Source of the DNA: Escherichia coli | GTDB taxonomy: Bacteria > Pseudomonadota > Gammaproteobacteria > Enterobacterales > Enterobacteriaceae | DNA length: 64,000 nucleotides | Assembly: GCF_030013205.1 (NCBI RefSeq) | Contig: NZ_CP122648.1 | Reading direction: 5' to 3' (one strand) | Shown: one piece after another, positions 46,845 through 47,102 of the stretch | Position numbering within the stretch: the first letter of the stretch is position 1 | How the letters are laid out: the number at the start of each line of letters is the position of its first letter | Translations under genes and position numbers: made by a program | Notes under the pieces: model-generated | Told to the model about the DNA's origin: nothing | What the model saw: only the letters and a program-made list of their open reading frames with translations | Databases searched by the model: none

Positions 46845-46872
46845 CAGGCCGCTTTCGCGGCCTTGTTTTTAA
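46845..46872. terminator. bidirectional terminator
   Basis: Stem caggccgc/gcggcctg followed by T-run. Confidence 0.55.
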
Positions 46873-47030
46873 CGAATGCCACCGCCACCCGGGCGGGAAT
46901 CCGCAGAACGCCCACCGCAGCGGGAGCCGTCAGCGGCAGTATCGCTGTCGTGCTGACAACGACCGGCAAAGGCCTGAGTTGAAGCTACCAGAGACAACAA
47001 AACGAACAGTGCAGCAAATGCTTTTTTCAT
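46869..47030 (-). CDS. possible small secreted Cys/Gly-rich protein
   Basis: 53-aa ORF MKKAFAALFVLLSLVASTQAFA-GRCQHD... within the 46869..47102 track ORF, flanked by two terminators; GC-rich unlike its neighbours. Confidence 0.3.
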   Translation of the reverse strand: MKKAFAALFVLLSLVASTQAFAGRCQHDSDTAADGSRCGGRSADSRPGGGGIR

Positions 47031-47102
47031 TGTGAAGTTTCCATCTATAAGCCACCTCAATGTGGCGTCAATGAGTGTAGCACTGGCTTTTGTTTCGTCC
47101 AC

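Follow-up and report, generated by a model that had tools for sequence, protein, structure and literature searches.

Here we show that a small gene on the minus strand of a 64,000-nucleotide stretch of Escherichia coli DNA (the window) behaves as a prophage moron. We consider it probable, at roughly 60%, that this gene is a self-contained transcription unit and that its product is an exported, disulfide-looped periplasmic peptide of ∼3.1 kDa which acts alone on a conserved component of the cell envelope. The gene and the signals around it are located in Table 1; the precursor consists of the segment MKKAFAALFVLLSLVASTQAFA, which ends at the predicted cleavage point, and the segment GRCQHDSDTAADGSRCGGRSADSRPGGGGIR, which follows it. 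The initial annotation of this DNA had pointed to an ORF of ∼53 aa, and an ATG-TAA frame of 53 codons is indeed found, but the coordinates then given (46869-47102) belong to a spurious 77-aa GTG ORF that overruns the gene.

Table 1. Features of the small-gene locus, in positions of the window
Feature	Position	Strand	Details
53-codon gene	46869..47030	-	ATG 47030-47028, TAA 46871-46869; precursor MKKAFAALFVLLSLVASTQAFAGRCQHDSDTAADGSRCGGRSADSRPGGGGIR
Signal peptide (predicted)	46965..47030	-	codons 1-22: MKK, hydrophobic core, A-F-A site
Mature peptide (predicted)	46872..46964	-	codons 23-53; 31 aa, 3060 Da, pI 8.1
Putative sigma-70 promoter	47074..47101	-	TGGACG 47101-47096, 16-nt spacer, TG-C-TACACT with hexamer 47079-47074
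5'-UTR stem-loop	47051..47066	-	GCCAC-ATTGAG-GTGGC, at or near the predicted mRNA 5' end
Bidirectional terminator hairpin	47109..47125	.	flagged on both strands, T-runs on both
GC-rich hairpin	46846..46863	.	6 nt past the stop codon; flagged on the + strand only

A mechanical listing of ORFs reports the 77-aa GTG frame on the minus strand, within which an internal ATG provides a sensible start. The GTG sits in the T-tail of the upstream terminator, 5' of a conserved -10 element, and the N-terminal extension that it would add is not conserved in other genera; the 53-aa frame is therefore the real one. Evidence for coding came from the DNA of nine divergent copies, in which substitutions were counted per codon position. 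Over the whole gene synonymous sites are saturated (pS 0.71) at a pN of 0.21, with pN/pS at 0.13 in the mature part and 0.47 in the signal peptide. Third positions vary in 29 of 29 mature-part codons, first positions in nine and second positions in six. The leader is variable among homologues and the mature part nearly invariant across genera, and the frame as a whole is under strong purifying selection. Since such a pattern is expected only with translation, the substitutions indicate that the 53-aa frame is a real, translated gene and that its exported part is functional.

The homology search that the initial annotation had proposed for the peptide clearly recovered conserved homologues. Close relatives, with 68-98% identity, occur in Klebsiella, Citrobacter, Enterobacter, Cronobacter, Franconibacter, Pectobacterium, Dickeya, Salmonella and other genera, and protein-level homologues at 45-85% identity have saturated synonymous sites. 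The earlier suggestion that the ORF might be a remnant is thus refuted by its homologues in many genera and by the codon-position pattern of purifying selection.

We infer that the gene is driven by a promoter of its own and that lysogens express it. The candidate promoter has an extended -10 element and lies about thirty bases downstream of the upstream terminator. Its -10 hexamer aligns with TAAACT, TAAAAT, TATGAT, TACAAT or TATAAT in nine other loci, where A2 and T6 are invariant. With a weak -35 element it reaches 8 of 12 consensus matches, which is below the threshold of the consensus scan and explains why the scan missed it. The stem-loop in the predicted 5' UTR retains five of five pairs in all eight loci compared from different genera, with one compensatory change (CG to UA) and two one-sided changes. 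A weak GG(A) Shine-Dalgarno element is present at 47042-47040, 9 nt before the ATG, and its GG is invariant in the same alignment. In the transcriptome study of phage phiv142-3, which carries the gene as orf11, this gene was not among the 14 serum-upregulated genes; the subject of that paper is the neighbouring orf10.

Hairpins flank the gene on both sides, as the initial annotation had noted, but only in part do they act as the terminators it described. The upstream hairpin, which is bidirectional, ends the preceding same-strand gene of 288 aa, insulates the small gene and marks one edge of the cassette described below. The GC-rich hairpin past the stop codon marks the other edge; it is a T-tailed terminator on the plus strand, where it serves the late operon and a 186-aa ORF, but it has no U-tract on the strand of the small gene. 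This second hairpin is retained in phage phiV10, in which it is annotated as ‘terminator’. Altogether, five terminator-like sites fall within 2.1 kb, compared with 1.8 ± 1.3 in shuffled sequences.

The compositional contrast noted in the initial annotation is also only partly what it seemed. The gene is GC-rich (57.4%, with 68.8% in its mature part) relative to its AT-rich neighbours (35.5% and 37.0%) and to the window (50.2%), but this does not support a separate origin. GC content by codon position is 0.74, 0.77 and 0.55 for GC1, GC2 and GC3, respectively, so that the excess lies in the first two positions and reflects a content of Gly, Arg, Ala, Asp and Pro, not a foreign base composition. 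The compositional outliers are the two AT-rich neighbours.

The cassette runs from hairpin to hairpin over ∼300 bp (∼46830-47134) and was found in 536 of the 5426 complete E. coli genomes; the 305-bp query is 100% identical to the copy in E. coli ETEC4071. It occupies a variable region of an epsilon15/phiV10-like podoviral prophage, between the gene for the last internal-virion or ejection protein on one side and the antirepressor-tailspike region on the other. Across 80 related IMG/VR loci, cassette similarity stops at 46829-46844 and at 47108-47134, that is, at the hairpins. A first IMG/VR scan returned only E. coli copies of 100% identity, which inform on the boundaries of the cassette and not on its divergence. 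Beyond the cassette, related prophages show ∼10 types of upstream flank and ∼8 types of downstream flank, and its neighbours include genes for a YafO toxin, a DUF2335 protein and a DUF4760 protein. A unit of ∼300 bp with changing flanks is a classic moron, and the gene is indeed a discrete presence/absence unit among otherwise collinear phages. The earlier proposal of an independently acquired micro-gene is supported by this recurrence of the hairpin-to-hairpin unit beside so many different neighbours, as well as in other phage types.

Annotated copies of the gene are gp43 of TL-2011b (‘putative transmembrane anchored protein’), Orf11 of phiv142-3 and a hypothetical protein of EC.W1-9, and HEMP4 carries it in an unannotated record. 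At the other extreme, phiV10 (locus L003, 4001-4061) and some E. coli genomes (H41-H43) retain no more than the hairpin of the late operon and the final 20-37 nt of the small gene. These 3' remnants suggest a deletion or recombination scar inside the 3' end of the gene.

The moron concept is said to go back to Hendrix and Juhala, from comparisons of HK97 and HK022. The bor and lom genes of phage lambda are examples of phage morons. The present cassette resembles such elements in being an autonomous unit within a conserved phage backbone, bounded by hairpins, with a putative promoter of its own, presence or absence in close relatives and a composition unlike that of its neighbours; it differs in that the contrast is driven by amino acid content and that it is the neighbours which are atypical.

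The precursor appears to be built for export. We judged the signal peptide by rule, looking for Lys or Arg in the n-region, a hydrophobic core of 10-15 residues and small residues at -3 and -1. The leader has an MKK n-region, a 14-residue core (AFAALFVLLSLVAS, residues 4-17, mean Kyte-Doolittle value 2.49) and an A-F-A↓G site, where the arrow marks the predicted cleavage point; by its features it is thus a predicted Sec/SPase-I signal peptide, which bears out the earlier claim of a classic one. The site is kept in relatives: among 153 distinct relatives with a leader, Ala occupies -3 in 96 and -1 in 118, and the next residue is Gly in 134. In most of them the A-x-A↓G-x-C register is fixed relative to the first Cys, so that the mature product would start two residues before it. 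Cleavage by signal peptidase II to yield a lipoprotein was considered and rejected, as the residues A-G-R stand before C25 and a lipobox ([LVI][ASTVI][GAS]C, with Cys at +1) does not admit Arg at -1.

Within the mature peptide, a Cys-loop module (C25...C38) is followed by GGRSADSRPGG and a GGIR tail. The two cysteines mentioned in the initial annotation are C25 and C38, and both are invariant in the family; they belong to a larger set of invariant or near-invariant positions that also comprises D30, A32, D34, G35, S36, G39, R41, R46, G48 and G49. An AlphaFold2 prediction from a 60-sequence alignment gave pLDDT values of 78-87 over residues 21-50 with little regular secondary structure; the model shows the mature part compactly packed, at moderate confidence. 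A class II microcin or bacteriocin was also rejected: the leader is of the Sec type and not a double-glycine leader, the cassette is isolated, and there is neither an exporter or immunity gene nor a conserved neighbour.

A search of 1.84 billion representative sequences with a profile built from 20 close homologues placed the peptide in a much wider family, with 366 clusters (50% identity) at E<1e-3. All are built around a core of ∼28 residues, G-x-C-x4-D-x-A-x-D-G-S-R-C-G-x-R-[SA]-[AS]-x-x-R-P-G-G. Most leader-type members end 7 or 10 residues past the R-[SA]-[AS] triplet; together with the start two residues before the first Cys, this makes the free peptide about one copy of the module. Among the retrieved proteins the module is standalone in 83, C-terminal in 36, N-terminal and followed by a transmembrane segment and a further domain in 21, and in tandem in a few. 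A lipobox lies upstream of the motif in 17 relatives. Other arrangements place it at the C-terminus after a transmembrane segment, or at the N-terminus before a transmembrane helix and an unknown cytoplasmic domain, and there are fusions to SH3_3 and T2SS-T3SS_pil_N. In three relatives (P0072, P0134 and P0157) the motif comes last, after a leader-like N-terminus, a domain and a hydrophobic stretch; taken literally, these would have the motif in the cytoplasm, unless they are fused gene calls.

As an observation in its own right, some members have four cysteines (P0155, P0203, P0178, P0133, L143 and L146; for example CDCPYDRASNGSRCGGRSAYSRPGGRSPICY), one of them fused to a bacterial SH3_3 domain. 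Their sequences imply a probable second disulfide, joining position Cys1+2 to the residues after PGG, which would fit a compact fold.

When one genome per species was scanned, 49 species-level loci were recovered in Proteobacteria, Cyanobacteria and Bacteriovorax. They come from Enterobacterales, Tolumonas, many Hyphomicrobiales, several cyanobacteria, Vibrio, Glaciecola and Bacteriovorax, and the named genera are all in diderm groups. We put forward a wider proposal, tentatively and with the odds against it: the mature peptide may represent, in its smallest free-standing form, an undescribed extracytoplasmic mini-domain (∼28 aa, one disulfide), conserved from Enterobacterales to rhizobia and cyanobacteria and recruited in standalone, lipid-anchored, transmembrane-tethered, tandem and fused forms. 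Such a domain would bind a universal ligand of the envelope, such as a metal ion or an element of peptidoglycan, and would be spread by temperate phages, and possibly by small plasmids, as a plug-in moron that alters the host envelope.

The genes found next to distant homologues differ from locus to locus. In one (L093, 2927-4153) a cI repressor gene, a Rap1a-family gene, the small-gene homologue and a terminator follow each other on one strand, with a spacing of 8 nt. This order resembles cI-rexAB of lambda, and by analogy expression in lysogens would be implied. Rap1a-family genes (PF18602, T6SS immunity) also adjoin homologues in L085 (4711-5094) and L104, and a second case behind cI is L111. 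Elsewhere the homologue follows a lysis cassette and a RelB/YafQ pair (L088), or lies beside genes for MuF polyvalent proteins in Pectobacterium and Dickeya prophages (L086 and L091). A Salmonella contig of 3115 bp (L087) encodes a 72% identical homologue at 868-1029 beside a MobA/MobL relaxase gene, which suggests carriage on a small mobilisable plasmid besides phages. Homologues are also found in non-phage chromosomal contexts in rhizobia and cyanobacteria. Among 142 neighbouring ORFs, 84 Pfam families were recognised and none recurred in more than three loci, so there is no conserved gene partner.

In prophages of Pseudomonas alloputida (L095-L097, 6001-6141), a homologue of 46 aa occupies the same slot on the late-gene strand. 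The order there is an 855-aa virion protein, the small gene and the tailspike, and the 855-aa protein is 45% identical to the 850-aa protein of the window. By eye, the small gene in these three loci is followed by two terminators of the hairpin-plus-T-run type that the scan did not flag, probably because A-T pairs prolong the stem into the T-run.

In the mechanism that we favour, transcription would start at the gene's own weak promoter with its extended -10 element, just past the terminator of the preceding gene; the translated precursor would leave the cytoplasm by the Sec route and lose its leader after Ala22. C25 and C38 would then be oxidised to a disulfide by the Dsb system of the periplasm, leaving a periplasmic peptide of ∼3.1 kDa that is essentially a single Cys-loop module of ∼28 residues. 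This peptide may bind, by itself, a highly conserved component of the diderm envelope, which could be peptidoglycan, a periplasmic protein that is itself conserved, or an ion or small ligand, and in the prophage its role would be that of an envelope-modifying accessory gene expressed in the lysogen. A conserved target is proposed because the core is near-invariant across phyla, serves as an add-on module beside the membrane or on other extracytoplasmic domains and has no partner gene; a fast-evolving, phage-specific target seems less likely.

The mature peptide also recalls the Excalibur domain (PF05901; Rigden and Galperin), which has a DxDxDG calcium-binding loop in the pattern DxDxDGxxCE. 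Both are small extracytoplasmic modules with an Asp-rich loop ending in D-G-x-x-C, here D30-x-A-x-D34-G-S-R-C38, but in the present family an invariant Ala stands in place of the central Asp of DxDxDG. The Excalibur Pfam model had no match at E <= 1 in the window protein and the first ten relatives, nor at E <= 0.01 in ten more. An Excalibur-like calcium site in the peptide is thus only a lead, suggested by analogy.

The main alternative, which we judge unlikely, is that the peptide serves superinfection exclusion or immunity, either blocking the envelope-penetration machinery of an incoming phage or neutralising a toxin that acts in the periplasm, such as a T6SS effector or colicin. The setting of the gene speaks for it, since the slot between ejection-protein genes and tailspike, which is kept in the Pseudomonas relative, is where P22-like and epsilon15-like phages keep exclusion or conversion genes. 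Among the neighbours of homologues are the Rap1a-family immunity genes, which in two loci form an operon with the homologue behind cI, together with SAVED and the YafO and RelB/YafQ toxin-antitoxin genes. By analogy with T4 Spackle (Sp), which inhibits the gp5 lysozyme, the transglycosylase-bearing ejection proteins encoded just upstream could be the target. Spackle and Rap1a are likewise small, Sec-exported periplasmic proteins from phages or islands that guard the envelope, but the present peptide is much smaller (31 aa when mature), shows no homology to them, matches no PADLOC model and shows far stronger conservation than immunity proteins typically do. As a rule, proteins for exclusion or immunity co-evolve with targets that vary, and they diverge fast, in contrast to a mature peptide that is near-invariant across phyla. 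Furthermore, the copies in non-phage chromosomal contexts of rhizobia and cyanobacteria do not fit such a role, and adjacency to Rap1a is a minority arrangement (2 of 49 loci in the species scan).

Longer odds attach to a second alternative, in which the leader would not be cleaved, in line with the database name ‘transmembrane anchored protein’, and the product would be a small membrane-anchored regulator with a disulfide-bonded periplasmic tail, modulating a host sensor or transporter as MgrB does PhoQ. MgrB and similar small envelope regulators of E. coli measure ∼50 aa and combine a hydrophobic segment at the N-terminus with a short periplasmic portion in which two Cys are functionally important. 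Our peptide shares this size and topology, with one hydrophobic helix and a periplasmic tail of ∼30 residues containing two Cys, and many relatives tether the motif by a lipobox or by a transmembrane segment only 3-10 residues away. However, there is no sequence similarity to MgrB, and the conserved SPase-I site, carriage on mobile elements and a motif that crosses phyla all set the peptide apart. The canonical A-x-A↓G site at a fixed register in most of the 153 relatives argues for cleavage, as does the hydrophobic core, whose shortness (∼14 residues) and poor conservation (pN/pS 0.47) are usual for a cleaved signal peptide and not for a functional transmembrane helix. In addition, the motif occurs at the C-terminus of soluble-looking secreted proteins.

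Finally, a non-coding element (an sRNA or structured spacer), a decayed remnant or an opposite-strand ORF as the real gene might be suggested by a GC-rich, hairpin-flanked region that folds somewhat better than shuffles (z = -2.1), by several overlapping ORFs on both strands and by the short 3' remnants of phiV10 and some E. coli, but these explanations are effectively refuted by the codon test, with three-base periodicity in the 53-aa frame only, by the divergent protein homologues with saturated synonymous sites and the unconserved 77-aa extension, and by an Rfam search of the gene region that gave only chance-level matches.

The gene is already known as a database object, and elements of this kind are ordinary. 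Its protein is 100% identical to WP_000708858.1, QGF19617 (phiv142-3 Orf11) and YP_007001994 (TL-2011b gp43), has an exact UniRef entry (A0A0A1A7U0, under the NCBI-UniRef name ‘transmembrane anchored protein’) and occurs unchanged on at least 1000 contigs. A full-length match (1-53/53, E 2.3e-40) is PHROG 14503, filed under ‘moron’ with the name ‘membrane associated protein’, and PHROG 3117 is a model of the spurious 77-aa extension. The names ‘transmembrane anchored’ and ‘membrane associated’ are predictions only. Searches of Pfam and NCBIfam returned no match for the peptide and, for 20 longer relatives, no model over the motif and weak chance matches (such as HxsA3 and MarB, E ∼0.1). PADLOC gave no match at E <= 0.1 for the peptide or its three neighbours, and a profile search of PDB sequences gave none at E <= 10. 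Literature searches with WP_000708858, with prophage ‘transmembrane anchored protein’ and with two peptide strings found no papers.

What makes the peptide moderately interesting is its mini-domain family, which is widespread, sharply conserved and apparently uncharacterised, and for whose ∼28-residue core we found neither a curated family nor a solved structure nor a paper. The exact cassette is present in about one in ten complete E. coli genomes and the core is nearly unchanged across phyla, making this a reasonable target for small-protein studies. The peptide is small enough to be synthesised, so that identification of its ligand or partner should be tractable; once found, the partner would explain carriage by many unrelated mobile elements and give a name to a recurrent motif of envelope proteins.

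Several features of the surrounding DNA deserve mention. The 186-aa ORF (46272-46832, + strand) has 35.5% GC and a signal-peptide-like N-terminus, and starts 3 nt after the gene for the 850-aa virion protein. It matches PHROG 11983 (unknown function) and nothing in Pfam, NCBIfam or PADLOC, and has the look of a further moron added to the late operon. On the opposite side, the 288-aa ORF (47124-47990, - strand; 37% GC) corresponds to a PGAP call of 251 aa and has hydrophobic N-terminal segments, with a match to PHROG 3630 and none in Pfam or PADLOC. A hairpin with a 15-bp stem lies within its 5' part (47925-47960). This ORF could be an uncharacterised exclusion or defence gene. In the ETEC4071 record (L004, 9266-11562) the capsid-cement gene of the Bbp16 family and the gene next to it are annotated as incomplete pseudogenes, so the cassette-bearing prophage may be defective.

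A perfect 12-bp palindrome, GTGACATGTCAC, is located at 46834-46845, past the stop codon of the 186-aa ORF and before the terminator hairpin. Klebsiella and Cronobacter loci keep it, it lies inside the segment that phiV10 retains, and many of the cassette break points fall at 46833 or 46844. The palindrome might bind a protein or mark a hot spot of recombination.
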